From: a virus
Taxonomy: Duplodnaviria > Heunggongvirae > Uroviricota > Caudoviricetes
DNA length: 11,602 nt
Strand: one strand, 5' to 3'
Virus record (IMG/VR): IMGVR_UViG_2778261227_000016
Location: 1-11,602 of that record
In this document: positions 1,146-11,602 of the stretch, in pieces
Layout of the letters: every line of letters starts with the position of its first letter
Numbering within the stretch: the first letter of the stretch is position 1
Translations under genes and position numbers: made by a program
Notes under the pieces: model-generated
The model's input: only the letters and a program-made list of their open reading frames with translations
Database searches by the model: none
What the model was told of the DNA's origin: nothing

Positions 1146-1172
1146 TCATAGTGCAGGGATTAAAATCATTCC

Positions 1173-1209
1173 CACTCAATTATTTACGGATACCATAACC
1201 AATTGAGTG
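1173..1209. repeat. 9-bp perfect inverted repeat CACTCAATT / AATTGAGTG with 19-bp spacer in the host-prophage junction
   Basis: CACTCAATT at 1173-1181 and its reverse complement AATTGAGTG at 1201-1209, between the host terminator and the spanin stop codons; candidate att-arm or recombinase-binding element. Confidence 0.3.
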
Positions 1210-1290
1210 ATAACATTTTTAAAAAGATGAATTTTTCCCGTACCGTTTTATATACCGTCACCGGAAATCAGTACCATGAAAAATGCCATG

Positions 1291-1773
1291 CTATCTGTTC
1301 ATGGTGTCGTACTGTTTTTCGCAGACTCTTCCGGCTTCGGCTGCCCGGTCAGCATACTCTGCCAGTTGTCTGTTTCTCTCGAGAGATTTGCTGAGCACGT
1401 CGGCAAGCAAAACTCCGGTGTCTGCGGCTGACGACCCAGCGCCGACAATGGCGTTATAGTGCCTGAGCTGCTCACGGATGGCAACGAGCTGTTGCTGCAA
1501 CCGGCCAGCGCGAGCGGCAGCATCAAGAGCATCATTGCGCGCCTGGTCGATCCTCTGCTGCGCTTCACGTTCATTGATCGCTTTCTCCTGTTCGTAGTGC
1601 TGACGAACTATCTCATCTTCGGTTTTGCGGTCTTCTTTCGCCTGTGCATACCCGGCATCGTACTGACGACTGCCGTGTACACTCCAGGCAACAACTCCTG
1701 ATATGGCCAGAACAGCAAGCGCCGCCATTATAATCAACTGTTTACGGTATGCTTTTACGAATGCCCAGATCAT
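1291..1773 (-). CDS. Rz-like inner-membrane spanin (i-spanin)
   Basis: 160 aa; N-terminal TM helix ([18 protein letters not shown]) then a charged coiled-coil-like periplasmic region ([50 protein letters not shown]); ATG at 1773 overlaps the endolysin stop as ATGA (1773-1770); contains an embedded lipoprotein ORF in another frame. Confidence 0.75.
1299..1574 (-). CDS. Rz1-like outer-membrane lipoprotein spanin (o-spanin), embedded in the Rz-like gene
   Basis: ATG at 1574 with AGGAGA about 8 nt upstream on the minus strand; lipobox LAGC after a hydrophobic run ([13 protein letters not shown]); Pro/Ser-rich mature region; lies wholly inside the i-spanin gene in a different frame, the classic embedded Rz/Rz1 architecture. 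Confidence 0.7.
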   Translation of the reverse strand: MNVKRSRGSTRRAMMLLMLPLALAGCSNSSLPSVSSSGTITPLSALGRQPQTPEFCLPTCSANLSRETDNWQSMLTGQPKPEESAKNSTTP

Positions 1774-2399
1774 ACAGCCAGCACCTTACTGGCAGTGACG
1801 TACCGCGAGCGCCGGTCGTCGATGCCATTCCGGCCACCATTGATAATCAGAGTTACACGTGCAATATCTCCGGGATACTTCATGCAGCCTTTGCTGGAGA
1901 AGAACCACGCCGCGCTACGAGCCGCGTATTCGTCCTGCGTCAACAGCTCAGGATTCTCCAGCAGGTCCACTTTTAGGCCGTTTCCGCAGTCACGATAGTT
2001 ATTCAAACCGGTAATCTGGATAAGCCCGCGCCCACGGTAATTCCAGCCATCGCCGGGAGCATTGTTACCCATGCGTTTGCTGTATACCAGATTTGCGATC
2101 GCGCGCTGGCGCTCAAGTGGCAATGGTGGTTCACCAGCACGGCGACCAAGTGCATTAGCCTGCACCTGAGTGAGACGCCCAGCCCGAACGAAGTTAGCCA
2201 GTCCGCTGACACTGTAGTTGAAATTCTCCTGCAACCTGGTGAAACCACCAGACTCATGCCCGACCTGAGCAATAAACATTGCCTGATCTTCTGCTTTGCT
2301 GATACCAAACTCTTTCATCGCAGAAGTTATATGCGAGAACCAGCGTGCGGCCAGCGCCTCGCTAATACCAGCAGCTCGCTGGAATTGTTTAATCTCCAT
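1770..2399 (-). CDS. Endolysin, glycoside hydrolase family 19 (chitinase-like) type
   Basis: Start placed at the internal ATG 2399-2397 ([11 protein letters not shown]...) with GAGG Shine-Dalgarno just upstream; the 77-residue upstream extension in the ORF track is rejected. Contains the GH19-like motif [10 protein letters not shown] and [12 protein letters not shown]; about 209 aa; sits between holin-like genes and the spanins. Confidence 0.8.
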
Positions 2400-2697
2400 G
2401 TTTAGACCTCGATACTTTGAAAATTTGAACGACGTTACCGCGCGTTTTAATAACCGCAGCGAGCATGACAGCGTTGATAATGACCTCAGATAAATCCACA
2501 GCCATTGGCGTGCGTAACCAGATTGCATAGACGACACGAACAGGAATACTTGCCGCAGCAACAATAAGGAAATAAGCAAGCCACCCTCCCCATCTTCGAT
2601 GTTGAGAGCCGTTACGCCGGAATGTGACAACGCGAATTGCTATGCCAGTACAAATGACTGCATTGGTGATAAGCAAAAAAAACTCATGCGTTACCAT
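2389..2697 (-). CDS. Small membrane protein in the lysis cassette (second holin or antiholin candidate)
   Basis: 102 aa; ATG at 2697 with GGGAGA upstream; two or three hydrophobic helices ([16 protein letters not shown]; [23 protein letters not shown]); its 3-prime end overlaps the endolysin start by 11 nt. Confidence 0.5.
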
Positions 2698-3088
2698 CGT
2701 CTTTTCTCCCCGGAATTAACTCGCGTGGATTATCGGAACGGTGATAGAGCCATATACCAATACGCACAGCAACAATTGCTGACACGAATGCGCCAGCTGA
2801 GAAAACAATCCCTTTTTCAAAAGAGTCCTGCGTGATGGTAGGGATCAGGCTGGCTATGCCGATAAGAATTGATGCTGCTGGTTTATAAAAAAGAAGGCCG
2901 CAGAGAAAGCTAAGCATCGACAAGAGTACACGACGACGAATAGGATACTCTACCGCAGAGGTAACAAAAATCACCGCCCCAGCCAAAGCCCCCAAAGCAA
3001 CCTCAGGAGGAACTCCTGCTATCACCGCCGCCAGAGAACTCATGCTAAGCCACTGATTTAAAGTTTCACTGGTTAGTTGAGCTGACAT
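2684..3088 (-). CDS. Holin-like multi-pass membrane protein
   Basis: ORF-track start at 3097 is GTG; I prefer the in-frame ATG at 3088-3086 (MSAQLTSE...) with GGTGGA about 7 nt upstream. About 134 aa with 3-4 hydrophobic helices and a charged C-terminal tail ([18 protein letters not shown]); first gene of the lysis cluster. Confidence 0.5.
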   Translation of the reverse strand: MSAQLTSETLNQWLSMSSLAAVIAGVPPEVALGALAGAVIFVTSAVEYPIRRRVLLSMLSFLCGLLFYKPAASILIGIASLIPTITQDSFEKGIVFSAGAFVSAIVAVRIGIWLYHRSDNPRELIPGRKDDGNA

Positions 3089-3192
3089 GTTTTCCACCGT
3101 TTACTGTGCATAAAGACCCCCATTAGTTGGTGATCACATCATACACAATAAACCATATATGGTTAAACCTGACTAAGATTGCTCTTAACGAA

Positions 3193-3209
3193 ATTACCCG
3201 AAAGGTGAT
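3193..3209. promoter_or_regulatory. Dyad motif copy a: ATTACC-cgaaa-GGTGAT (candidate operator)
   Basis: In the divergent intergenic region between the holin-like gene and the acyltransferase gene, 38 nt upstream of the acyltransferase ATG; shares both half-sites with copies at 6703, 7083 and 8122. Confidence 0.4.
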
Positions 3210-3246
3210 ATCATTGACGTATCATATGATTTTGTGAAAAAAAATT

Positions 3247-4302
3247 ATGCTAGAAGAGAAAAAAAGCCACGCCATTGATTATGTAAAGTGTATTGGTATT
3301 GTTCTTGTTATATTTGGTCATTACCCAAATACAATTATCAATATACTAAAGCCATACATGTATCACATGCCTCTATTTTTCTTCTTGGGTGGGATTCTTT
3401 TTAATACAAAAAAAGGAAGTATAAAGCACTATAAAAACTTAGCAATTAAATATCTACTATACATAATTATGTCGTATGTTTTTTTGGGATTGACTGTTAA
3501 GTTAATGCATTATTTGTTTGAAACTCAAGACAAATTAATTTACGTTAACAATCTTTATGATTCTGTGATGTTTGCACTGAAAAGCAATTTTCACAACAAT
3601 CCGTTATTTATGGTTGGATGGTTTTTATTGAGCTATATGCTCGTTCTTGTAGTTGCATATCCATTTTACAAAATAATTGAGACGTATTTAAACGAGACGA
3701 CAGCGAAAGTTTTTTCTTTTACGATTGGACTCGCTATTGGATACGTGGCGATTACATATGTATCACCAATGTACAAAGAAAGCAAGATGTTCTATTTTAA
3801 CACTCTATGTCAGGTGATGGTTGGTTTGTCATTCTTCATGATCGGCTACGCCGCCAAAAATGTGATATGGAAATTTCTAAATCCATATACTACATTTACC
3901 TTGTTTTTATCCGTTATTTTCTTTCGTCAGTCTGGATTAATCACGAATTTATATATGTCATGGAGCACTTACGCAGATGGTTTTGTCATGAGCCTAGTTG
4001 GTGCGTTAATTGGAATTTATATAATATTTTTCTTTGCCGACCTGTTTTCAAAAGCTGGCGACTATAAATTAATGCGTATGGTTGGCAGTGAAAGTAAGGC
4101 TATAATGACGTTTCATATGTTAAGTTTCACGATAGTTGACATTATTTTCTCGCTACTAGGTTTCTATACAGTTGATAAAAAGCAGATACTCAATCACTTT
4201 ACATCAGCTTATTCCCTTCCTTTGAATATATTAATCGCAATATTCCTGTCTATTTTATTAGGGAAAGCATTAAGGAAGTTATCTAAAGGCGTATACGCAT
4301 GA
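3247..4302 (+). CDS. Acyltransferase family 3-like integral membrane protein (candidate O-antigen/LPS O-acetyltransferase; AT-rich accessory gene)
   Basis: 351 aa, about 10 hydrophobic helices; N-terminal motif DYVKCIGIVLVIFGHY resembles the conserved first-helix Asp/Arg...His motif of acyltransferase-3 (Oac/OafA-type) enzymes; strongly AT-rich (17 of 60 G+C in 3301-3360); opposite strand to and directly beside the tailspike gene. No obvious Shine-Dalgarno before the ATG. Confidence 0.5.
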   Translation: MLEEKKSHAIDYVKCIGIVLVIFGHYPNTIINILKPYMYHMPLFFFLGGILFNTKKGSIKHYKNLAIKYLLYIIMSYVFLGLTVKLMHYLFETQDKLIYVNNLYDSVMFALKSNFHNNPLFMVGWFLLSYMLVLVVAYPFYKIIETYLNETTAKVFSFTIGLAIGYVAITYVSPMYKESKMFYFNTLCQVMVGLSFFMIGYAAKNVIWKFLNPYTTFTLFLSVIFFRQSGLITNLYMSWSTYADGFVMSLVGALIGIYIIFFFADLFSKAGDYKLMRMVGSESKAIMTFHMLSFTIVDIIFSLLGFYTVDKKQILNHFTSAYSLPLNILIAIFLSILLGKALRKLSKGVYA

Positions 4303-4320
4303 AGCCCCTTTTGGGGCTTC
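4301..4320. terminator. Stem-loop between the convergent acyltransferase and tailspike genes (bidirectional terminator candidate)
   Basis: Perfect 8-bp stem GAAGCCCC (4301-4308) / GGGGCTTC (4313-4320) with TTTT loop, between stop codons at 4300-4302 (+) and 4329-4331 (-); no long U-tract on either side. Confidence 0.5.
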
Positions 4321-4328
4321 TAAATGAA

Positions 4329-6599
4329 TTACGGAACTCGCGTTAGTACGTTATTATTCCAGTAACATTCACCACTCGCCAGACCGGTAGCTGAAGTAGG
4401 AAGAGTGAGTTTCATTGAGAGGTTAGTCAACTCAATCTTGTCGGTGTCATAAGACCCAAGCCGCAGTCTGTTCGAGCTTAACAATCTTGTGCTATCATTT
4501 GAAAACGAAAAAGAGGTACTATTTATCCTTACATTACCAATTGTTGTTGCAGACGCACCACTTGGAAATCCTCCATTAAAATTATCAAAAATATCATTCA
4601 GAGATCCTGATACTGAAACTCCAGAAACACCGTTCGTCACAGTTACAATTTGCTGTTGTGCATCACAAGAATCTGTTAATAAATTGCCAATAAGAGTACC
4701 TGCTGTAATTGAAATGTGGTTACCTATAATCTTGTTATCACCATGTGTTATATCAACGATATTGGTGCACGCCCCGATATGCTGGATATTGATATGGTTG
4801 CCACGTAACTCACCACTTGGTTGAGCGTTATTGGGTCCTTTAAGGTTAACATCGACACGGCATACGCCATTAAACATTATGTTGATTTTGTTGTTGTACC
4901 CTCTTCTTACTCTCAGTGGGCTGTCAATCGTGCCGTAGTTGGCAGAATTCATTGCGGTGAGCTCAACATCAATATCCGCTGAGCGATCCAGCAATACCAA
5001 CCCCTCGTCTAACTCCTTACCCGACACTGATCCCAACCCGCAGTTTAGCGCGTAGATATCTTTGAAACTACCGAACGAAATATCTGTAGCATAGCTTGGT
5101 GTCACCATTTCTCTGACGTTTCTTATCACTCGATCACAGTTCTCAGCGGAACAATTATAGTAGTGAACGTCTGTTGCAGTAGTCCATTCGCCAACACCAT
5201 TTTCACGACCAACAAATTCAAATGCTGATGAGCAACTTTCAACTTTTGCACCTTCAATTCTTATATTATCAACGCCGTATTCCCAGTTAAACGCCTTCCC
5301 GCCTGCTGAGTATTGTGATGACGAACCTCTGCGGCAGTTACGTATCACGCCACCAATCGACAAAACGTTCCTGCATTTACTACCGCTGATACCATTTTCA
5401 CCTTGCACATCAGACGTCGGATAACCAATATTCCCCCCATCTATATGTGGATTAATGAAACGTACATTTTCAACAGGATTACTATAAGTCCCCAGCACAG
5501 CAATCACTCCACCAATAGTTGATTTGGCAGTTAGCGTAATAAATGATGGCTTCAGCCATTCCATAGTCACATTACTAGGAACAACGATGTTATCAGAAAT
5601 TGGATATACCATTTCTTCAGTTATGATAACGCGAACACCAAATTTTGATGCTGCATTAACCGCCCCCTGAAGTCCATACAAAGTATCCGTATCAGATGGC
5701 GTAACACCAAAATCCTCTGGTGTTATATCGAATGCAGAGCGAACCCACTTCAGAGCACCACTACCAGCGACAACACCTCCATCATCTAAATCAGAGGTCG
5801 CCTTTGCGATAAACTCACCGCCACCCAACAAGGATCCAGAATGCCAGCCTTTCAACAAAATCCTCTGGCCTTCAAACTCCGGAAAAATAGAACGCAACTC
5901 ATTGAAACTATTACATTGCCCAATGCGCTTGAAACCATCAGGCTTTGCTAACTCTATAAGAACGTCTGAGGCTGACCCAGAAGGTGGTGTTATAACAATA
6001 ACGTTACCACTGTTATCAAAAGCTGGCATTTTATTGCGTCTGCCATCAACGTCAGGAAGTTGGTTTATTGGCTCAGGTACGCGAAGAGTTCTGCTAAAAT
6101 TTCCTGATGCGAGGCTATCCACATAATTTTTTGTTGCAGCATCCTGCGGTCTTACTGGATCACGTAAATTTCTGATGTAATTATTCATCGCATCATAATA
6201 GTTTGCAGCAAACGATGGCTTACGAAGCGCCAGTCTGAACCAATTACGAGTTTGCTGAATCAGCATAGTTAGTTTATCAAATGCATCCTCATGCACCTCA
6301 GCAAAAAACTTACCCTGGTTACGCAGATCTGTCTCCTGCGTAACCAGGAGCTCTCGAGAGATAGATATCTGATGACCGTTTGCCAATGCCTTCGACAAAA
6401 TTACATTGCCACCATTATATCCTCCAGCCCCGGTAACAGAGTAATCAGTATCCAGTTTCAACACCGTGATGTTTTCATTGAGGTCAGCAATCTGAACGGT
6501 CAAGTCTGACTTTTTGAAAATTCTGAATGTATACGGAAATGATGTCGTTACGCCGTTACCAGTGTATTCGTTGTGATCAACTTCGGTTGAGACCGTCAT
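4329..6599 (-). CDS. Tailspike / tail fiber protein with beta-helix-type receptor-binding (depolymerase-like) body
   Basis: 756 aa; ATG at 6599 with GGAGA about 8 nt upstream; N-terminus MTVSTEVDHNEYTGNGVTTSFPYTFRIFKKSDLTVQ... resembles the conserved particle-attachment N-domain of podophage tailspikes (recollection); central and C-terminal region rich in Gly/Asn/Ser/Thr/Val repeats typical of right-handed beta-helix folds; the 3-prime third is visibly more AT-rich than the 5-prime part. Confidence 0.8.
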   Translation of the reverse strand: MTVSTEVDHNEYTGNGVTTSFPYTFRIFKKSDLTVQIADLNENITVLKLDTDYSVTGAGGYNGGNVILSKALANGHQISISRELLVTQETDLRNQGKFFAEVHEDAFDKLTMLIQQTRNWFRLALRKPSFAANYYDAMNNYIRNLRDPVRPQDAATKNYVDSLASGNFSRTLRVPEPINQLPDVDGRRNKMPAFDNSGNVIVITPPSGSASDVLIELAKPDGFKRIGQCNSFNELRSIFPEFEGQRILLKGWHSGSLLGGGEFIAKATSDLDDGGVVAGSGALKWVRSAFDITPEDFGVTPSDTDTLYGLQGAVNAASKFGVRVIITEEMVYPISDNIVVPSNVTMEWLKPSFITLTAKSTIGGVIAVLGTYSNPVENVRFINPHIDGGNIGYPTSDVQGENGISGSKCRNVLSIGGVIRNCRRGSSSQYSAGGKAFNWEYGVDNIRIEGAKVESCSSAFEFVGRENGVGEWTTATDVHYYNCSAENCDRVIRNVREMVTPSYATDISFGSFKDIYALNCGLGSVSGKELDEGLVLLDRSADIDVELTAMNSANYGTIDSPLRVRRGYNNKINIMFNGVCRVDVNLKGPNNAQPSGELRGNHINIQHIGACTNIVDITHGDNKIIGNHISITAGTLIGNLLTDSCDAQQQIVTVTNGVSGVSVSGSLNDIFDNFNGGFPSGASATTIGNVRINSTSFSFSNDSTRLLSSNRLRLGSYDTDKIELTNLSMKLTLPTSATGLASGECYWNNNVLTRVP

Positions 6600-6702
6600 G
6601 TTAAATCTCCAGATAGTCGCAGCACCCGTTGCGCCGCATATCCGGTCATTCTATTACCTGAAAAACCACATATGGATAGATAACCCATAAATACGAACAG
6701 AT

Positions 6703-6719
6703 ATTACCTTTCAGGTGAT
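6703..6719. promoter_or_regulatory. Dyad motif copy b: ATTACC-tttca-GGTGAT (candidate operator)
   Basis: In the divergent region between the tailspike start (6599, minus) and the LexA-box promoter of the antirepressor locus; identical half-sites to copy a. Confidence 0.4.
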
Positions 6720-6755
6720 TCGCAAAACGTGCTGGATAGCAAGCAAATTATTTGA

Positions 6756-6775
6756 TACTGTATAAATATACAGTT
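6756..6775 (+). promoter_or_regulatory. LexA (SOS) box overlapping a promoter upstream of the antirepressor locus
   Basis: TACTGTATAAATATACAGTT matches the E. coli LexA consensus TACTGT-(AT)4-ACAGTA: CTGT 6758-6761, an 8-nt A/T-only spacer, ACAG 6770-6773. Overlaps a -35-like TTGATA (6752-6757); the first ATG with a Shine-Dalgarno (GGAGA 6783-6787) is at 6795. Confidence 0.65.
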
Positions 6776-6794
6776 ATTGCATGGAGAAGATAAG

Positions 6795-7052
6795 ATGCAG
6801 CAGTATCACTATCCACTGGAAGACGGATTTACCGAAAGGATTCACACGCCGGGAGGCGTCAGGTCACTAGTGGAGGGATCGCACTTGATGAAATTACTCC
6901 GGGATCTCGATAAGGATGGATTTAATGTCGATGGCCCACTTGCCGAACTGACTGCACTGATTAACTACGTCACCAGCTCACAGATGTCTATGCGGGATCT
7001 GCAAACACATCTCGACTATTGTGCCGAACAATTACGAAAACAAACCAGATAA
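6795..7052 (+). CDS. Small protein paralogous to the C-terminal domain of the downstream antirepressor
   Basis: ORF-track start at 6777 is TTG; I prefer ATG 6795 (MQQYHYPLEDG...) with GGAGA upstream; 85 aa. Residues HTPGGVRSLVEGSHLMKLLRDLDKDGFNVDGPLAELTALINYVTSSQMSMRDLQTHLDYC align by eye with the C-terminus of the 7365-8051 product (HSPSGVLGLTENSLLMNLLNQLQDDGHDVSGAAAELTTMFCYIVGVSKCLRDIQTHAEYI), about 40 percent identity. Confidence 0.5.
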   Translation: MQQYHYPLEDGFTERIHTPGGVRSLVEGSHLMKLLRDLDKDGFNVDGPLAELTALINYVTSSQMSMRDLQTHLDYCAEQLRKQTR

Positions 7053-7082
7053 GGTTTGCAATTACCAAATGGAGTGCTTATA

Positions 7083-7099
7083 TTTACCTTTGCGGTAAA
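7083..7099. promoter_or_regulatory. Dyad motif copy c: TTTACC-tttgc-GGTAAA (candidate operator) overlapping a promoter-like element
   Basis: Perfect palindrome arms ATTTACC / GGTAAAT; immediately downstream of -35-like TTGCAA (7055-7060) and -10-like TATATT (7079-7084), i.e. at the -10/+1 position typical of repressor operators. Confidence 0.4.
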
Positions 7100-7191
7100 T
7101 TTACATCACACTCCTCTTGTGCCATAGTAATCGGGCACTGGCAAAATCCAGTGCCGGGATTGGCGTCCCGAGTTACTACAGAGGCACATAT

Positions 7192-7211
7192 GCCGCATAA
7201 GCGGTTTTTTT
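7192..7211 (+). terminator. Weak intrinsic terminator / attenuator-like hairpin in the antirepressor leader
   Basis: Short stem GCCGC (7192-7196) / GCGG(T) (7201-7205), loop ATAA, followed by a run of seven T (7205-7211); lies in a roughly 310-nt untranslated leader that also holds an 8-bp-stem hairpin (7134-7155) and a GAAA-tetraloop hairpin (about 7251-7266). Confidence 0.3.
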
Positions 7212-7364
7212 ATGTGTAAAGCGCACCTATTCTATGGTGGGCTGTGTGGGGGCACCGAAAGGTGCGCCGGGTCCTTTGTAGCCGGTTACGCCAACCCTGC
7301 ACAGTTCACCACCAACCGATTGGCGTCGGTAGTGGTGATTAACCTAACTACAAAGGTGATCGCT

Positions 7365-8051
7365 ATGACTGCTAACGTAACCCCATCTGTTTTTCATTTT
7401 GAATCAGAAGCAACCATTCGAGCCATTGTTATTGATGGAAATCCTTGGTTTGTTGCCAAAGACGTTATTAAAGCTCTTCAACTGACAAACCCCACTATGT
7501 CAATAAAATCTCTTGATGATGATGAAAGGGCTAAATTTAACTTAGGCCGTCAAGGCGAAACCAATATTATCAACGAGTCAGGCCTCTACACACTGATCCT
7601 CCGCTGCCGCGATGCGGTGACACCAGGCACTACCCCCTACCGCTTTCGTAAATGGGTTACAGGTGAGGTTCTTCCTCAGATCCGCCGCACCGGAAGTTAC
7701 ATTAAAAACTCGCTCCCGCAGGAAGAACGCATAAAGATGGTTGCCGACCAGGTAGCCAGCGCCACAGCATCAGCAGTGATGCAGGCAATGAAGGTAGAGA
7801 ACAAAACCTACAGCGCCCCACTGAAGCCCGGCTACCGCAGCCTGATTCATTCGCCGTCTGGTGTTCTCGGCCTGACGGAGAACTCACTGCTGATGAATCT
7901 GCTGAACCAGTTACAGGACGACGGGCACGACGTATCGGGCGCGGCGGCGGAGCTGACCACCATGTTCTGCTACATCGTCGGTGTGAGCAAATGCCTGCGT
8001 GATATCCAGACACACGCGGAGTACATCAACGACAAAGCAGGGTTCTTCTGA
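7365..8051 (+). CDS. Phage antirepressor with N-terminal Bro-N/AntA domain
   Basis: Start placed at ATG 7365 (MTANVTPSVF...) with AAGGTG upstream; the Cys/Gly-rich upstream extension in the ORF track (from 7212, directly after a T-run) is rejected. Bro-N signature IRAIVIDGNPWFVAKDVIKAL...ESGLYTLILRCRDAVTPGTTPYRFRKWVTGEVLPQI; 228 aa. Confidence 0.8.
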   Translation: MTANVTPSVFHFESEATIRAIVIDGNPWFVAKDVIKALQLTNPTMSIKSLDDDERAKFNLGRQGETNIINESGLYTLILRCRDAVTPGTTPYRFRKWVTGEVLPQIRRTGSYIKNSLPQEERIKMVADQVASATASAVMQAMKVENKTYSAPLKPGYRSLIHSPSGVLGLTENSLLMNLLNQLQDDGHDVSGAAAELTTMFCYIVGVSKCLRDIQTHAEYINDKAGFF

Positions 8052-8121
8052 CGGGCGGCGGCACAGGGATGTGCCTTTAAATAATTCTGTACAGATTGCA
8101 GACTGGGGGTGAATAGCGTAC

Positions 8122-8138
8122 TATTACCTTAAAGGTAA
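8122..8138. promoter_or_regulatory. Dyad motif copy d: ATTACC-ttaaa-GGTAAA (candidate operator) upstream of the two-gene module
   Basis: About 45 nt upstream of the 8181 ATG; overlaps a weak promoter-like element (-35-like TTGCAG 8096-8101, -10-like TACTAT 8119-8124). Confidence 0.4.
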
Positions 8139-8180
8139 ACCTGTTTTTATTTTATACCTGTAACTTACCGGAGATTAAAG

Positions 8181-8507
8181 ATGACAAAACTTGGATTCGT
8201 GATGAGAGGTCCGGTAAGAAGCGGAACTCATGCAAAGCGTAGCAAGAGTCGTATTTTTACTGGTAAGGTTGTAGCACGTAAATCAGCTATTGGCTCGTTC
8301 AATAGTGAAAATGCGGCATTGCGCCATATTTTTATCAGCACAAAGCCAAGAGCATCCGCTGATGTGCATACAATGACTATTCCTATCACAAAGAATATAA
8401 AGCGGATAAAAAAGCTCTCATCTGCAGAATCAAAAGAGATATCTTTCCGCCAGCTTAACTCATTAGAAACGCATATGAAGGAAGAGGAATTCGATGTTTT
8501 TGAGTGA
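8181..8507 (+). CDS. Small basic protein with acidic C-terminal tail; putative antitoxin/partner of the downstream gene
   Basis: 108 aa; ATG 8181 with GGAG (8170-8173); Lys/Arg-rich N-terminal half (KRSKSRIFTGKVVARKS), acidic C-terminus HMKEEEFDVFE; its stop overlaps the next ORF start by 14 nt (translational coupling); AT-rich. Confidence 0.45.
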   Translation: MTKLGFVMRGPVRSGTHAKRSKSRIFTGKVVARKSAIGSFNSENAALRHIFISTKPRASADVHTMTIPITKNIKRIKKLSSAESKEISFRQLNSLETHMKEEEFDVFE

Positions 8508-9006
8508 GTATAGCGGGAAGGTTATACCTACTGGTGAGTTTAAAACTGATGACTTTCTGATTTCGCTAAAAGATGCTTTTAAACAACACTGGCGTCATGG
8601 TCATCATCCTGATCTGGGAAAAGATACTCTTTTTGAAAGACCAGACGAAGTATTAGGTTTCCATCTCAGAAAGGTTCATGTCAATATTGGTGAATATGCA
8701 TCATATTCATACTCATGTACTGAACAGTGTTGGGATGAGTGGTCATATGGATTGATTGATGAACAAGGAAATTACAGGCCAAAACCAACCAGTAACGCAT
8801 ATCTCATATATGCAGTCAATGAAATAAGAGATGCAGCCTTACTAGCTTATTGGGACCCGCCCGCACACACCAAAGCTAACGCAAAAGTTTGGATGGATTC
8901 CGTATTGAATTTCACAAAATTATTTCATGAACGAACGAATACAGCTCCACTTAGTAGAAATGTTTATCCGTGGGATTATTCGTACAAATCCAAAAAGCCT
9001 GCATAG
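8494..9006 (+). CDS. Putative toxin, YafO-like (type II toxin family) by motif resemblance; function unverified
   Basis: 170 aa; ATG 8494 with GAGGAA upstream; motifs GFHLRKVHVNI, AYLIYAV and LLAYWDPPAHTKANAKVWMDSVLNFTKLF resemble the HIHL / LVY / LLxxILxPxxHxxA pattern I recall for YafO-family ribosome-dependent mRNA interferases. No HMM search was possible. AT-rich (20 of 60 G+C in 8521-8580). Confidence 0.4.
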   Translation: MFLSEYSGKVIPTGEFKTDDFLISLKDAFKQHWRHGHHPDLGKDTLFERPDEVLGFHLRKVHVNIGEYASYSYSCTEQCWDEWSYGLIDEQGNYRPKPTSNAYLIYAVNEIRDAALLAYWDPPAHTKANAKVWMDSVLNFTKLFHERTNTAPLSRNVYPWDYSYKSKKPA

Positions 9007-9087
9007 TAGTTTTTTATGGACGAAACAAAAGTCAGTGCTACACTCATTGACGCCACATTGAGGTTGATTATAGATGGAAATTTCACA

Positions 9088-9249
9088 ATGAAAAAAGCAT
9101 TTGCTGCACTGTTCGTTTTGTTGTCTCTGGTAGCTTCAACTCAGGCCTTTGCCGGTCGTTGTCAGCACGACAGCGATACTGCCGCTGACGGCTCCCGCTG
9201 CGGTGGGCGTTCTGCGGATTCCCGCCCGGGTGGCGGTGGCATTCGTTAA
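9088..9249 (+). CDS. Small secreted peptide (signal peptide plus about 31-aa Cys/Gly-rich mature peptide)
   Basis: Start placed at ATG 9088 (MKKAFAALFVLLSLVASTQAFA-GRCQHDSDTAADGSRCGGRSADSRPGGGGIR); typical Sec signal peptide with AxA cleavage site; two Cys in the mature part; the ORF-track start at 9016 lacks a Shine-Dalgarno and would put 24 residues before the signal peptide. Confidence 0.4.
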   Translation: MKKAFAALFVLLSLVASTQAFAGRCQHDSDTAADGSRCGGRSADSRPGGGGIR

Positions 9250-9272
9250 AAACAAGGCCGAGAAAGCGGCCT
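9246..9272 (-). terminator. Rho-independent terminator ending the minus-strand virion/membrane-protein unit (possibly bidirectional)
   Basis: 6-bp GC-rich stem AGGCCG (9255-9260) / CGGCCT (9267-9272), loop AGAAAG; on the minus strand the hairpin is followed by TGTTTTTAA (complement of 9246-9254); lies between the + peptide stop (9247-9249) and the minus-strand 98-aa gene stop (9281-9283). Confidence 0.55.
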
Positions 9273-9280
9273 GTGACATG

Positions 9281-9577
9281 TCACGTTCCTTTTCTGAATG
9301 ATAGCCGTTCGAAAAATGATGACATTCCACCGCAGACAATAGCAAAGATGATCCCACCAAAGAAGAGAAGGCCAGCCTGCCACCACTCCCACCGCCATAC
9401 ATCCACAGCGCCAATCATACCAACAATCGCTCCAACAAACGGAATATAACTCACGACAAAAGCAACGGGAGCTGCAATTACCCAGTGCAACCCCCACCAT
9501 GATTCAAGCCCAGCCATAATTGCTGCCAACTGAAAAAGACCAACGACGATATAAACAATGAATCCTATAGCTTGCAT
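9281..9577 (-). CDS. Small three-helix membrane protein of unknown function
   Basis: 98 aa; ATG 9577 with AGGTGA about 5 nt upstream; hydrophobic helices (IGFIVYIVVGLFQLAAIMAGL; VIAAPVAFVVSYIPFVGAIVGMIGAV; AGLLFFGGIIFAIVCGGM), Trp-rich loop WRWEWWQ; the overlapping ORF-track entries 9136-9414 and 9246-9500 are rejected. Confidence 0.55.
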   Translation of the reverse strand: MQAIGFIVYIVVGLFQLAAIMAGLESWWGLHWVIAAPVAFVVSYIPFVGAIVGMIGAVDVWRWEWWQAGLLFFGGIIFAIVCGGMSSFFERLSFRKGT

Positions 9578-9589
9578 GTAGTCACCTAT

Positions 9590-9763
9590 TTACCCATTAA
9601 AAATCAGAGGCCTCCCCTCAATAAGGCTTGCAACAAGAACTACTCCCTGCACAACAAAGATGAACCAGCAAATAGCTTGAGTCTGAGGGTTAAGAAAATA
9701 TTTGTAGCGGTCAATAAATAACAATCCACCAGAAATTATCACACTCAAAATAATTAAAAACAC
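9590..9763 (-). CDS. Unlisted small hydrophobic ORF (57 aa, GTG start) between the large virion gene and the 98-aa membrane gene
   Basis: Hand translation of the minus strand: (GTG)FLIILSVIISGGLLFIDRYKYFLNPQTQAICWFIFVVQGVVLVASLIEGRPLIFNG, stop TAA at 9592-9590; AAGGAAG precedes the GTG and overlaps the large gene's stop; two predicted TM helices; fills a 195-bp gap and ends 13 nt before the next gene's ATG. Absent from the ORF track, presumably below its length cutoff. Confidence 0.35.
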   Translation of the reverse strand: MFLIILSVIISGGLLFIDRYKYFLNPQTQAICWFIFVVQGVVLVASLIEGRPLIFNG

Positions 9764-9772
9764 AACACTTCC

Positions 9773-11602
9773 TTATTGCGGAGTGACATCCTGAGGTCGC
9801 CACCAGTATGTCTGGTTAAACTCTTTCTTCGAACGTTGCTCCATTTTACGCAAATATCCTGGTGAAAAATACTCCTGCATCTGGTTAAAGATCATGTGAT
9901 CGAGAGCCGCCTTCAAGTACCAGAGATTCGCACCAGGCATCAAACCTTTCCCCAGCTTCACCAGATCACCACCAGTCTGCTCACTCTTCCCTTCCACAGC
10001 ATTTAACGGTATGCCCTGAGCAATCTTCACTACGTCATCAACCAGACCAGCTACCGGGCCAAGCATCGACGCCAGCGCGCCGCTTCCGTACCTAGTGTGA
10101 TCTGACAATAAAAAGTCACCATAAAGGCCAAGACCACCACCTTTCAGTAGAGCACCAAGCCAGAATTTTGCGGCATCTTCTCCTGTCATCTCTCGAGGAT
10201 TACGACCAGACGCAAGGTCGTTAAGTTGTTGCGACAAAGCGCCAAGAATGGTCGTACTGGCAATAAACGTCGCAATATATGCCGCACGCCCACCAGCAGA
10301 CGGCATACCCATAGCGCGTGACCAGTGACGCATAACAACCGAGATAGGGAACGATTTAAACAGGAAAACACTTCTCGTTAATTCACCTTTCCATGTTCCA
10401 CGCTGAAGACCAGACCCTACGAACATCTGTTCACGTGCGCCCGGTGTAATAACAGCCATATCAACTTCTTCAGTTACGGCACCGAGCAGTTTACGCATTG
10501 CCTCAAATTTCACACGTTCAGGCTCACCAAGATGTTTAACTGCTGAATCAGGGATACGCATAATGCTTTCCGGTGTCAGCATCGTATTATTACCGTTCCC
10601 CCAGTCCTCCTGTTGCGCCAGCTTCCATACGCTCCAGTCTGTGTCAGTAATCCCTTTGCTTTTCAGGATACGAAAATCAGAGTCATCGAGGCTACGAAGG
10701 TCTGGTGTCCGTGACACTACTTCTCCTAGGCTTCCCATCATAGTTACGCCATAGGCGCGCTTGTGCGCATCTGACCATGCTGTAAGCCCACTGGCACGCA
10801 TTACCGCCGTTGCCGCCCAACGAGACACAGACGGCCCCATATTATCCATCGCCCAGCGGTTAACGCTGCCAAGTAGAGATTCCATCGCCAGACCAGCTCG
10901 GCGCGCCCGCGCAAGCTCAGTACGGTTCGTTGGGTCCATAGCTTCAAGCTGGTTGCGGAATAACTGGTTCATTGGAAGGTTGGTAACCTTCGCAGACAGA
11001 TACATGGTTCCAAGATCAGAGAACGATGACAGCAACGCGGATCCGAGTCTGCTGGCAACCAGCCAGTTGCGGATATTGTCAGACCATCGCGCGATGTGCG
11101 GATTCGCTACAGGCTGTGTCTTTCCGGAAATAAAGTTGTACAGGTTCTCTGTTTTGTTCGCCAGCCGCTCGACGCTACCGGTTTTACTCGGGTTAGCTGT
11201 TGCCGTTTCAGCCTTCACCTGATCAAGAAGGGAACGGAAAACATGATCGGGGTTTGGGCCATATGTTTCCACCAGAGCAATATCTTTACTGATCCCTTCC
11301 AAGTGACCGACCATGATTTCCCATAGAGAGCGATCGCCATAAAGTTGCTGATATTGCAGATAGGAATCTGCATCTTTGAAATGTATCTGTCGTGATGCAT
11401 TACCACGGTTAGAACGTGCGCCGGAAATTCGCATTCCGGTATCAGTAAGCTTATTCAGCCCACCAGTAGCGATCGTGTTATAAGCCTCTCCAAGAAATGC
11501 AGACAACTCAGCATCGTTCATCAGTTGTGAACCGCCCCGGGAATCCTGGAGACTAAACTTCCTGAGAAAGAGGTAAACAGGATGACTAAAAATACTCGTT
11601 TT
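9773..11602 (-). CDS. Large phage virion/ejection-type structural protein, partial (N-terminus beyond window end)
   Basis: The ORF-track entry starts at ATG 11521, but the frame stays open upstream to 11602 (hand translation ...KTSIFSHPVYLFLRKFSLQDSRGGSQL-MNDAELSAF...), so the gene probably starts outside the window; at least 609 codons; no enzymatic motif recognised; Gly-rich C-terminal segment (LKGGGLGLYGDFLLSDHTRYGSGALASMLGPVAGLVDD); same strand as and directly upstream of two small membrane-protein genes. Confidence 0.6.
   Translation of the reverse strand, partial: KTSIFSHPVYLFLRKFSLQDSRGGSQLMNDAELSAFLGEAYNTIATGGLNKLTDTGMRISGARSNRGNASRQIHFKDADSYLQYQQLYGDRSLWEIMVGHLEGISKDIALVETYGPNPDHVFRSLLDQVKAETATANPSKTGSVERLANKTENLYNFISGKTQPVANPHIARWSDNIRNWLVASRLGSALLSSFSDLGTMYLSAKVTNLPMNQLFRNQLEAMDPTNRTELARARRAGLAMESLLGSVNRWAMDNMGPSVSRWAATAVMRASGLTAWSDAHKRAYGVTMMGSLGEVVSRTPDLRSLDDSDFRILKSKGITDTDWSVWKLAQQEDWGNGNNTMLTPESIMRIPDSAVKHLGEPERVKFEAMRKLLGAVTEEVDMAVITPGAREQMFVGSGLQRGTWKGELTRSVFLFKSFPISVVMRHWSRAMGMPSAGGRAAYIATFIASTTILGALSQQLNDLASGRNPREMTGEDAAKFWLGALLKGGGLGLYGDFLLSDHTRYGSGALASMLGPVAGLVDDVVKIAQGIPLNAVEGKSEQTGGDLVKLGKGLMPGANLWYLKAALDHMIFNQMQEYFSPGYLRKMEQRSKKEFNQTYWWRPQDVTPQ

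Follow-up and report, generated by a model that had tools for sequence, protein, structure and literature searches.

The 11,602-nucleotide stretch of viral DNA analysed here (the window) spans the lysis/tailspike end of a prophage of phiV10/epsilon15 type (Uetakevirus) that adjoins yfgI, and its gene order is collinear with that of phiV10-type phages. Approximately 10% of the window is intergenic. We compared it with seven relatives, namely phiV10, phiv142-3, SPC32H, epsilon15, the PCN033 prophage, Tyrion and Klebsiella phage BUCT711, whose hosts are E. coli, Salmonella, Enterobacter and Klebsiella. The cassettes for the tailspike and oac are variable, and the prophage of the window carries an IS insertion at 11528 and so may be defective. 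The features that bear on the analysis, including four copies of a 17-bp dyad treated as candidate operators a to d, are as follows.

3138–3166, − strand: late-type promoter block of the lysis cassette, TTAACC, then CATATATGGTT, 7 nt and TATGAT
3193–3209: candidate operator a, ATTACCCGAAAGGTGAT, with one imperfect half-site (GGTGA); 17.8 bits
6648–6677, − strand: late-type promoter block of the tailspike gene, CATATGTGGTT, 7 nt, TAATAGAAT
6703–6719: candidate operator b, ATTACCTTTCAGGTGAT, with one imperfect half-site (GGTGA); 19.3 bits
6756–6775: LexA box before the small ant gene, TACTGTATAAATATACAGTT; one mismatch to the searched pattern, 0.00 expected
6795–7052, + strand: small antirepressor Ant, 85 aa, the partner of Rep; 87% identity to SPC32H Ant and a match to phrog_450
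7056–7084, + strand: promoter of the C4/Bro-N module, TTGCAA (7056–7061), 17 nt, TATATT (7079–7084); found by promoter scan
7083–7099: candidate operator c, TTTACCTTTGCGGTAAA; 20.7 bits; its first two bases are the last two of the −10 hexamer
7122–7316, + strand: leader RNA of the Bro-N gene; Rfam c4-a1b1, isrK-like and C4
7365–8051, + strand: Bro-N protein, 228 aa; Pfam Bro-N at 2.9e-20
8096–8124, + strand: promoter-like pair of the two-gene module, TTGCAG (8096–8101), 17 nt, TACTAT (8119–8124); below the scan threshold
8123–8139: candidate operator d, ATTACCTTAAAGGTAAA; 23.6 bits; its first two bases are the last two of the −10 hexamer
8181–9006, + strand: two-gene cargo module, a 108-aa protein followed by an overlapping 170-aa YafO-like protein

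The initial annotation had described four WTTACC-N5-GGTRAW dyads, all intergenic, and all four are present in the window sequence and lie between genes, with site d falling one base to the right of the position first given for it (8123–8139 rather than 8122–8138). Each is of the ATTACC-N5-GGTAAT type with a fixed, A/T-rich spacer of 5 nt. A chance origin had been considered unlikely, and this was borne out by 200 dinucleotide-preserving shuffles, in which ~0.01 copies of the degenerate 17-mer were expected against the four observed. When TTACC-N5-GGTAA was searched with up to one mismatch, there were five matches compared with 0.29 expected from shuffles of the window; the fifth, at 2950–2964 inside the holin-like gene, scored 8.5 bits, which is chance level, and was excluded from the count. 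Scoring with a weight matrix built from the relatives alone placed sites a–d as the top four of the window (17.8–23.6 bits), the next-best score of 8.5 bits being close to the median best score of the shuffled window. Given the intergenic share of the window, placement of 4/4 sites between genes has P ~1e-4.

Isolated ATTACC half-sites had also been reported at 6653–6658 and 7061–7066, and both were found. The window contains 14 ATTACC hexamers compared with ~5.7 expected, so isolated copies are unremarkable by count alone. Both are nevertheless kept in relatives, the first within the late-type −10 region of the tailspike promoter block and the second beside a −35 hexamer. We rejected their reading as degenerate dyads, since the opposite halves do not match and the late −10 and −35 contexts explain them better.

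When complete prophages and host DNA were scanned, as the initial annotation had proposed, the motif proved to be enriched between genes and specific to the prophages. Perfect dyads with the 5-nt spacer occur in 8–11 copies per ~39 kb genome in the seven relatives, while any other spacer from 0 to 12 nt gave 0–1 copies per related genome, and 50 kb of host DNA contained not a single perfect copy. Within the PCN033 prophage 12/14 sites fall in the 8.4% of the sequence that is intergenic (P = 9e-12), and in relatives with tabulated gene positions the dyad is nearly always intergenic. Alignments showed that the window sites share their positions with orthologous intergenic sites of Uetakevirus relatives, among which the half-sites are near-invariant while the spacers and flanks drift. 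Dyads also flank the rep/cro switch of the relatives, with two or three separating rep from the cro-like gene and a further pair on the PL side. At the PL promoter of PCN033, TTGACA-17-AATCAT is followed directly by TACC..., so that the operator begins inside the −10 hexamer. Dyad pairs recur at 62 bp in the relatives; in the window, neither site c nor site d has a partner operator at that distance upstream.

Sites c and d are in the same register as PL, and relatives keep this register despite differing hexamers and cargo. Both start at the last two −10 bases, in agreement with the proposal that they lie at −10/+1 of promoter-like pairs. Operator c is kept in phiV10, phiv142-3, PCN033 and Tyrion with a layout as at PL of PCN033, and the promoter of the C4/Bro-N module is likewise kept in relatives. 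Downstream, the leader contains c4-a1b1 targets at 7122–7174 (44.3 bits, just under the Rfam gathering score of 46.7), an isrK-like RNA at 7135–7211 that ends in a terminator (74.2 bits; gathering score 50) and a C4 antisense RNA at 7230–7316 (79.5 bits; gathering score 45). Residues 146–224 of the Bro-N protein form a second Ant-type domain (phrog_450 at 6e-36), and its C-terminus has 41% identity to the small Ant and a match at 1.9e-13 to chain E (Ant) of PDB 5D50. The layout of operator d is repeated in PCN033, phiv142-3 and Klebsiella phage BUCT711 before different cargo genes, with better hexamers in relatives at the promoter position (TTGGCG-18-TAATAT and TTGACG-16-TAAGAT). The cargo behind site d matches phrog_5933 and phrog_1651, both of unknown function; the YafO-like protein has a weak match to Pfam YafO_toxin that is below cut-off (E = 9.5e-4), and its PCN033 ortholog is named 'YafO family toxin' by PGAP.

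The classic −10/+1 operator position proposed for c and d holds, and sites a and b have no recognisable overlap with a core promoter and lie ~65–70 bp upstream of late-type promoters. Operator a, with its centre ~70 bp upstream of the inferred lysis transcription start, separates the lysis cassette, which starts at 3097 on the − strand, from oac, which starts at 3247 on the + strand. Operator b, with its centre ~67 bp upstream of the inferred tailspike start, separates the tailspike gene (start 6599, − strand) from small ant (start 6795, + strand). Three late-type promoters share CATATRTGGTT-N7-TAnnAn, with Rep-type dyads at fixed distances of ~65–80 bp upstream; measured to the shared motif itself, the upstream distance is 32–44 nt for sites a and b and for the dyad that precedes the head-gene operon of relatives. 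The half-sites of operator b are invariant across the eight genomes save one base, GGTGA in the window and phiV10 and GGTAA in the other six, with a spacer that varies, and the LexA box ahead of small ant is also kept in all eight. The position of operator a is kept in phiV10, SPC32H, epsilon15 and Tyrion, with an unchanged distance to the lysis promoter block. Alignment with the relatives showed operator a to be absent from PCN033 and phiv142-3, both of which are without oac here, yet these two relatives still keep the lysis promoter. This absence, together with the location of sites a and b off the core promoter, means that simple occlusion fails for a and b. Site a also falls inside the spacer of a predicted oac promoter, where repression would be odd because oac is a lysogenic-conversion gene; a conserved oac promoter around site a was discarded as a candidate, since the −35 predicted in the window is not kept in relatives.

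The proposal that the dyads serve as operators of a phage regulator whose gene lies beyond the window gained support, as the prophage scan turned out as predicted, with rep expected ~30 kb away. The same annotation had called the regulator unknown, which does not stand, because the dyad is already annotated as a repressor-binding site in epsilon15 and the structure of the repressor family has been solved (SPC32H Rep, PDB 5D50). The epsilon15 RefSeq record (NC_004775.2) marks seven dyads 'protein_bind: repressor, lysogeny', among them the site b ortholog at 19895–19911, features that may themselves be predictions. Rep is encoded by all complete relatives, and the repressor of the closest of these matches SPC32H Rep (PDB 5D50) with E = 4e-42. 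The Rep–Ant lysis/lysogeny switch of SPC32H was reportedly worked out by Kim and Ryu in 2013 and by Kim et al. in 2016 (PDB 5D50, 5D4Z). According to published accounts, the N-terminal HTH domains of the Rep tetramer pair on palindromic sites, and the tetramer bound to palindromic DNA is broken by Ant (PMC9638917). In phage ZX5, overexpression of an identical repressor lowered holin and endolysin transcripts by >99.9% (PMC9782041). Full-text literature searches for the dyad or for the Rep operator of SPC32H returned no operator sequence.

From the sequence comparisons, we consider it very likely that the four dyads are operators of Rep, the master repressor of epsilon15/phiV10/SPC32H-type (Uetakevirus) prophages. 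In a lysogen, Rep would occupy ATTACC-N5-GGTAAT dyads across nearly all intergenic control regions of the prophage. At sites c and d, where the operator extends from the last two −10 bases over the transcription start, bound Rep would exclude RNA polymerase and thereby silence the C4 RNA and Bro-N/Ant gene, and the YafO-like pair, respectively. At sites a and b, Rep most likely helps to hold the lysis and tailspike late promoters off, by looping to the core promoter or by blocking an activator. Upon induction, DNA damage would free the LexA box at 6756–6775, the small Ant would be made, Rep would be removed from the DNA, and all four sites would open at once.

The Cro-like early protein (76 aa, epsilon15 gp39 type) could instead be the main reader of the dyads and would through them switch off early and accessory transcription in the lytic cycle. 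Cro and CI of lambdoid phages use common operators, and the HTH of the Cro-like protein (AGTTSHYIQTHLTG) is invariant across the genus, as is the dyad. The N-terminal HTH of Rep is equally invariant, so there is no co-variation signal that separates Rep from Cro as reader. The epsilon15 record, however, gives the sites to the repressor, Rep is reported on palindromic sites (PMC9638917), and a lysogen needs its lysis, tailspike and antirepressor units silenced, which together make reading mainly by the Cro-like protein improbable. The Cro-like protein of these phages may nonetheless share the dyads with Rep, and sharing is more likely than use by Cro alone. Marginally less probable again is that the dyads are activator sites for middle/late transcription, recognised by a gp49-type 'transcriptional regulator', an AlpA-like or PerC-like protein. 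Such a role would suit sites a, b and the head-gene site, whose distance of 32–44 nt from the late-type motif is typical of an activator, but not the overlap of the dyad with the −10 and start at PL, the post-replication promoter, c and d, nor its filling of the rep/cro switch region, all of which are repressor positions.

Every dyad can fold as a hairpin of 6–7 bp (−4.2 to −6.2 kcal/mol), and the dyads might accordingly be RNA hairpins, or else host-factor sites, or non-regulatory remnants of chance or recombination. These hairpins are weak and without a U-tract, and the fold of site d does not improve on that of its shuffles (z = −0.65), on which grounds we ruled out the hairpin/terminator reading. 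Furthermore, the spacer is fixed in length and free in sequence, conservation of the half-sites is at the level of DNA and covers both strands, and perfect copies of the motif are missing from the 50 kb of host DNA, the motif being kept in phages of four host genera; the probability of this group of explanations is, in our view, very small.

Binding by Rep remains the reading we favour. The dyad is an already catalogued site, and the finding is correct and largely ordinary; no new kind of system is revealed by it. Its value is that a regulator is assigned to four sites that otherwise lack explanation, and that two accessory units, one made up of the C4 RNA and the Bro-N/Ant gene and the other of the YafO-like pair, would be expected to be silent in the lysogen and on at induction. 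The rule ATTACC-N5-GGTAAT, with its 5-nt spacer, could also be used to annotate Rep-controlled units of Uetakevirus prophages in E. coli, Salmonella, Enterobacter and Klebsiella. Beyond this, research value is limited to a possible feedback loop through the second Ant and to the operators placed upstream of late promoters. The C4 RNA driven from the site c promoter and the second Ant domain on the downstream Bro-N protein are apparently new parts, and this second domain suggests positive feedback. It is conceivable, although short of probable, that these belong to an undescribed commitment circuit in which Rep at site c represses C4 and Bro-N/Ant, and Rep operators upstream repress late promoters at a distance. 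In such a circuit, the small Ant, triggered through LexA, would release a second antirepressor that is gated by RNA, giving a double-negative, positive-feedback loop, while the Rep tetramer would repress the late promoters from afar by looping or anti-activation.

Among characterised systems, epsilon15 has the same 17-bp ATTACC-N5-GGTAAT dyad, genome type and gene order as the window, and carries an unannotated dyad at the position of site a (24704–24718). The window differs in having one imperfect half-site (GGTGA) at each of sites a and b, and in having the Bro-N/C4 module and the YafO-like pair, both missing from epsilon15, where nothing therefore corresponds to sites c and d. SPC32H shares the LexA-box ant system, with a small Ant 87% identical to that of the window, and has dyads in matching places, whereas the window has an extra Ant-type domain fused to Bro-N under predicted control by Rep and C4 RNA. 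This arrangement resembles immI of phage P1, where the C1 operator Op51 at promoter P51b is followed by c4 antisense RNA, icd and ant: in both, a promoter covered by a repressor operator leads into a C4-family antisense RNA with a1/b1 targets and then an antirepressor gene. The asymmetric P1 C1 operator ATTGCTCTAATAAATTT had no match in the window with up to three mismatches, no ORF fits an icd gene in the 48 bases between C4 (7316) and the antirepressor start codon at 7365, and the antirepressor is a Bro-N/Ant fusion, unlike P1 ant. The Rep dyad holds the place of the C1 operator, and the C4 module would thus work like immI without being P1 immI. The use of one repressor at many genome-wide sites is shared with P1 C1 and with gp71 of mycobacteriophage L5 and its 'stoperators', but the Rep dyads are symmetric and at promoters while the L5 and P1 sites are asymmetric and within transcribed regions. 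Unlike those of lambda, the Rep dyads number more than ten and are dispersed; like OL and OR, they overlap −10 or −35 elements at early promoters and are grouped as pairs or triplets at the switch.

The initial annotation described a recurrent 17-bp dyad in the window and proposed it as a candidate operator set for an unknown phage regulator. All four copies exist and all four are intergenic, each being single rather than paired, although the last lies at 8123–8139 and not at 8122–8138:

3193–3209, site a
6703–6719, site b
7083–7099, site c
8123–8139, site d

Matches to the degenerate 17-mer are expected 0.01 times in shuffled sequence, and when the window was scored with a weight matrix built from relatives alone, sites a–d were the top four (17.8–23.6 bits), with the next-best match at 8.5 bits, approximately the best score of a shuffled window. 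The set of operators is thus real, and the initial annotation read it correctly, but its regulator is not unknown, as by sequence the motif is the already catalogued repressor site of the genus Uetakevirus. Seven of these dyads are annotated in the epsilon15 RefSeq record as 'protein_bind: repressor, lysogeny', and the one at 19895–19911, in the interval separating gp19 from the tail fibre gene, is orthologous to site b.

A motif scan of prophage and host, as proposed in the initial annotation, bore this out. Using seven complete relatives (phiV10, phiv142-3, SPC32H, epsilon15, the PCN033 prophage, Enterobacter phage Tyrion and Klebsiella phage BUCT711) we detected 8–11 perfect copies of TTACC-N5-GGTAA per ~39 kb genome, or 13–18 with up to one mismatch allowed, while half-sites with any other spacer tried (0 to 12 nt) gave 0–1 perfect copies, and 50 kb of adjoining host chromosome held no perfect copy. 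The consensus is aATTACCwwWwwGGTAATw, with the central base A/T almost without exception. Of the 14 sites in the PCN033 prophage, 12 are intergenic, though intergenic DNA makes up 8.4% of it (P = 9e-12). The remaining two probably sit in a mis-called N-terminal extension of terS and are themselves intergenic, since the annotated start lies upstream of the operator pair in phiV10 (L001 41–715) and PCN033 (L005 27579–28253), while a shorter terS starting right after the pair is annotated in epsilon15, SPC32H and phiv142-3. Dyad locations were common to all genomes scanned:

between rep and the cro-like gene, two or three dyads (spacing 48 bp or 17+30 bp)
at PL (leftward early promoter), two dyads spaced by 62 bp
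after the replication genes, a pair 62 bp apart
immediately before terS, a pair (18 bp)
before the head-gene operon, a single dyad
between ant and tailspike, a single dyad
before the lysis cassette, a single dyad
beside int, a single dyad

These centre-to-centre spacings are the fixed ones that recur in phiV10 (L001), PCN033 (L005) and further relatives (L002, L004, L007, L008), and the recurring pair spacings fit a tetramer on two dyads.

From ~1164 to 11528 the window is 92–96% identical, across shared parts, to phiV10/epsilon15-type podoviruses (Uetakevirus), and it also matches prophages adjoining yfgI in many E. coli genomes. The attachment core of phiV10/epsilon15/ZX5 is attgagtgggaatgatt (PMC9782041), and its reverse complement at 1164–1180 marks the prophage end beside yfgI. 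The gene order is:

1–1071, host genes yfgH and yfgI
1291–3097, − strand, lysis cassette
3247–4302, + strand, acyltransferase gene oac (Pfam Acyl_transf_3)
4329–6599, − strand, tailspike
6795–7052, + strand, 85-aa ORF
7365–8051, + strand, Bro-N protein
8181–9006, + strand, two-gene module
then small membrane ORFs
9773–11521, − strand, virion protein gene, running into a mobile-element terminus at ~11528

Homology to phage genomes ends at 11528, where TGAACCGCCCCGGG... starts, followed by ATGACTAAAAATACTCGTTTT; 11528–11602 looks like part of an IS3-family element (IS629/IS3411 type), comprising its inverted repeat and its first ORF. Such an element looks to sit within the virion protein gene, and the prophage may therefore be defective.

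The 194-aa repressor of the closest complete relatives matches SPC32H Rep (PDB 5D50) over its full length (E = 4e-42). Rep is described as binding palindromic DNA in the form of a tetramer, which the small tetrameric antirepressor Ant takes apart (PMC9638917; PMC9986798), and in phage ZX5 overexpression of the identical repressor cut holin and endolysin transcripts by >99.9% (PMC9782041). The rep gene is outside the window; however, the 85-aa ORF is 87% identical to SPC32H Ant, and as the window thus carries Rep's specific partner, the prophage very likely has, or had, a Rep-type repressor. Ahead of this ORF is a near-perfect LexA box, TACTGTATAAATATACAGTT, at 6756–6775. Kim and Ryu reportedly found in 2013 that LexA controls ant expression. 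Box and ORF together form the trigger through which SOS acts on the Rep switch.

In PL of PCN033, TTGACA-17-AATCAT is directly followed by TACCTCAACGGTAA; the first two bases of the operator are the final two of the -10 hexamer, and the operator spans the start site. Sites c (TTGCAA-17-TATATT, then TACC...) and d (TTGCAG-17-TACTAT, then TACC...) share this register exactly, and it is constant in relatives despite changes to the hexamer (TATTAT in Tyrion, TAATAT in PCN033, TAAGAT in Klebsiella BUCT711) and to the downstream cargo. The layout is the classic occlusion position, and the putative repression by Rep of the units behind c and d is the well-supported part of the mechanism. The module behind site d comprises two overlapping genes, of 108 aa then 170 aa, the latter product being weakly YafO-toxin-like with a PCN033 ortholog named YafO family toxin by PGAP; it fills a cargo slot whose promoter bears a Rep operator and where other relatives carry different genes.

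Sites a and b overlap no recognisable core promoter, and each lies 32–35 nt upstream of a conserved − strand block, CATATRTGGTT-N7-TA(T/A)nAn:

3138–3166, − strand, late-promoter-like block, lysis cassette
6648–6677, − strand, late-promoter-like block, tailspike
L001 3311–3327 (phiV10), example in a relative
L005 24563–24579 (PCN033 prophage), example in a relative

Five of the seven complete genomes carry three copies, before the head-gene operon, tailspike and lysis cassette, and two copies each are present in phiv142-3 and BUCT711, where the lysis-cassette upstream regions differ. These are exactly the locations where late transcription must restart past an opposite-orientation cassette, and the block, which has a good -10 but lacks a -35, resembles a late promoter that depends on an activator. 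Every copy has a Rep dyad 32–44 nt upstream, except that of the PCN033 lysis cassette. With a start site assumed 7 nt past the -10, operators a and b are centred at approximately -70 and -67, and the operator–block distance is free of indels in five genomes (site a) and eight genomes (site b) while the intervening sequence drifts, a constancy which argues for functional coupling. We infer that Rep may keep the late promoters off from a and b; a loop reaching the core promoter could do this, and so could obstruction of an activator or of the alpha C-terminal domain. In favour of looping, two of the late -10 regions, out of three, hold a GGTAAT half-site, the one noted initially at 6653–6658 among them. 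Against this simple picture, site a is absent from PCN033 and phiv142-3, which both keep the lysis promoter and both lack oac, and in the window it also lies inside the spacer of a predicted, unconserved oac promoter.

A Cro-like protein may share the dyads with Rep, its HTH being as invariant as that of Rep across a comparison which cannot tell the two proteins apart. Were the dyads activator sites, this would agree with the positions of a and b only, and would be at odds with the rep/cro switch region and the sites overlapping a -10. RNA hairpins, host-factor sites or chance are disfavoured by the strict spacer rule, by weak hairpin folds, by the lack of a perfect copy in the 50 kb of host DNA scanned and by conservation of the dyad across four host genera. 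With Rep operators as the preferred reading, interest is confined to local wiring, namely a Rep-controlled C4/Bro-N-Ant unit, a Rep-controlled cargo slot and upstream operators at late promoters.

Rfam searching of the interval from the site c promoter to the Bro-N start codon identified:

7122–7174, a1/b1 target sites (c4-a1b1)
7135–7211, isrK-like RNA with a terminator at its end
7230–7316, C4 antisense RNA (79.5 bits)

The C-terminal domain of the Bro-N protein (residues 146–224) is an Ant homologue (phrog_450, 6e-36; PDB 5D50 chain E, Ant, E = 1.9e-13) with 41% identity to the window's small Ant, so two domains of Ant type are present in the prophage and are controlled differently. The fusion also occurs in PCN033, phiv142-3 and Tyrion, and is truncated in phiV10. 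A positive-feedback loop is plausible, in which LexA cleavage would allow small Ant to be made and Rep to be released from DNA, whereupon the site c promoter would become active and a second, C4-RNA-gated Ant-domain protein would reinforce the decision. The leader at 7122–7316 and its gene share the layout of P1 immI. A P1 C1 operator was sought at the C4 module and not found, and the space is too short for icd, which P1 immI has; in the window, the Rep dyad occupies the place of the C1 operator of P1 immI.
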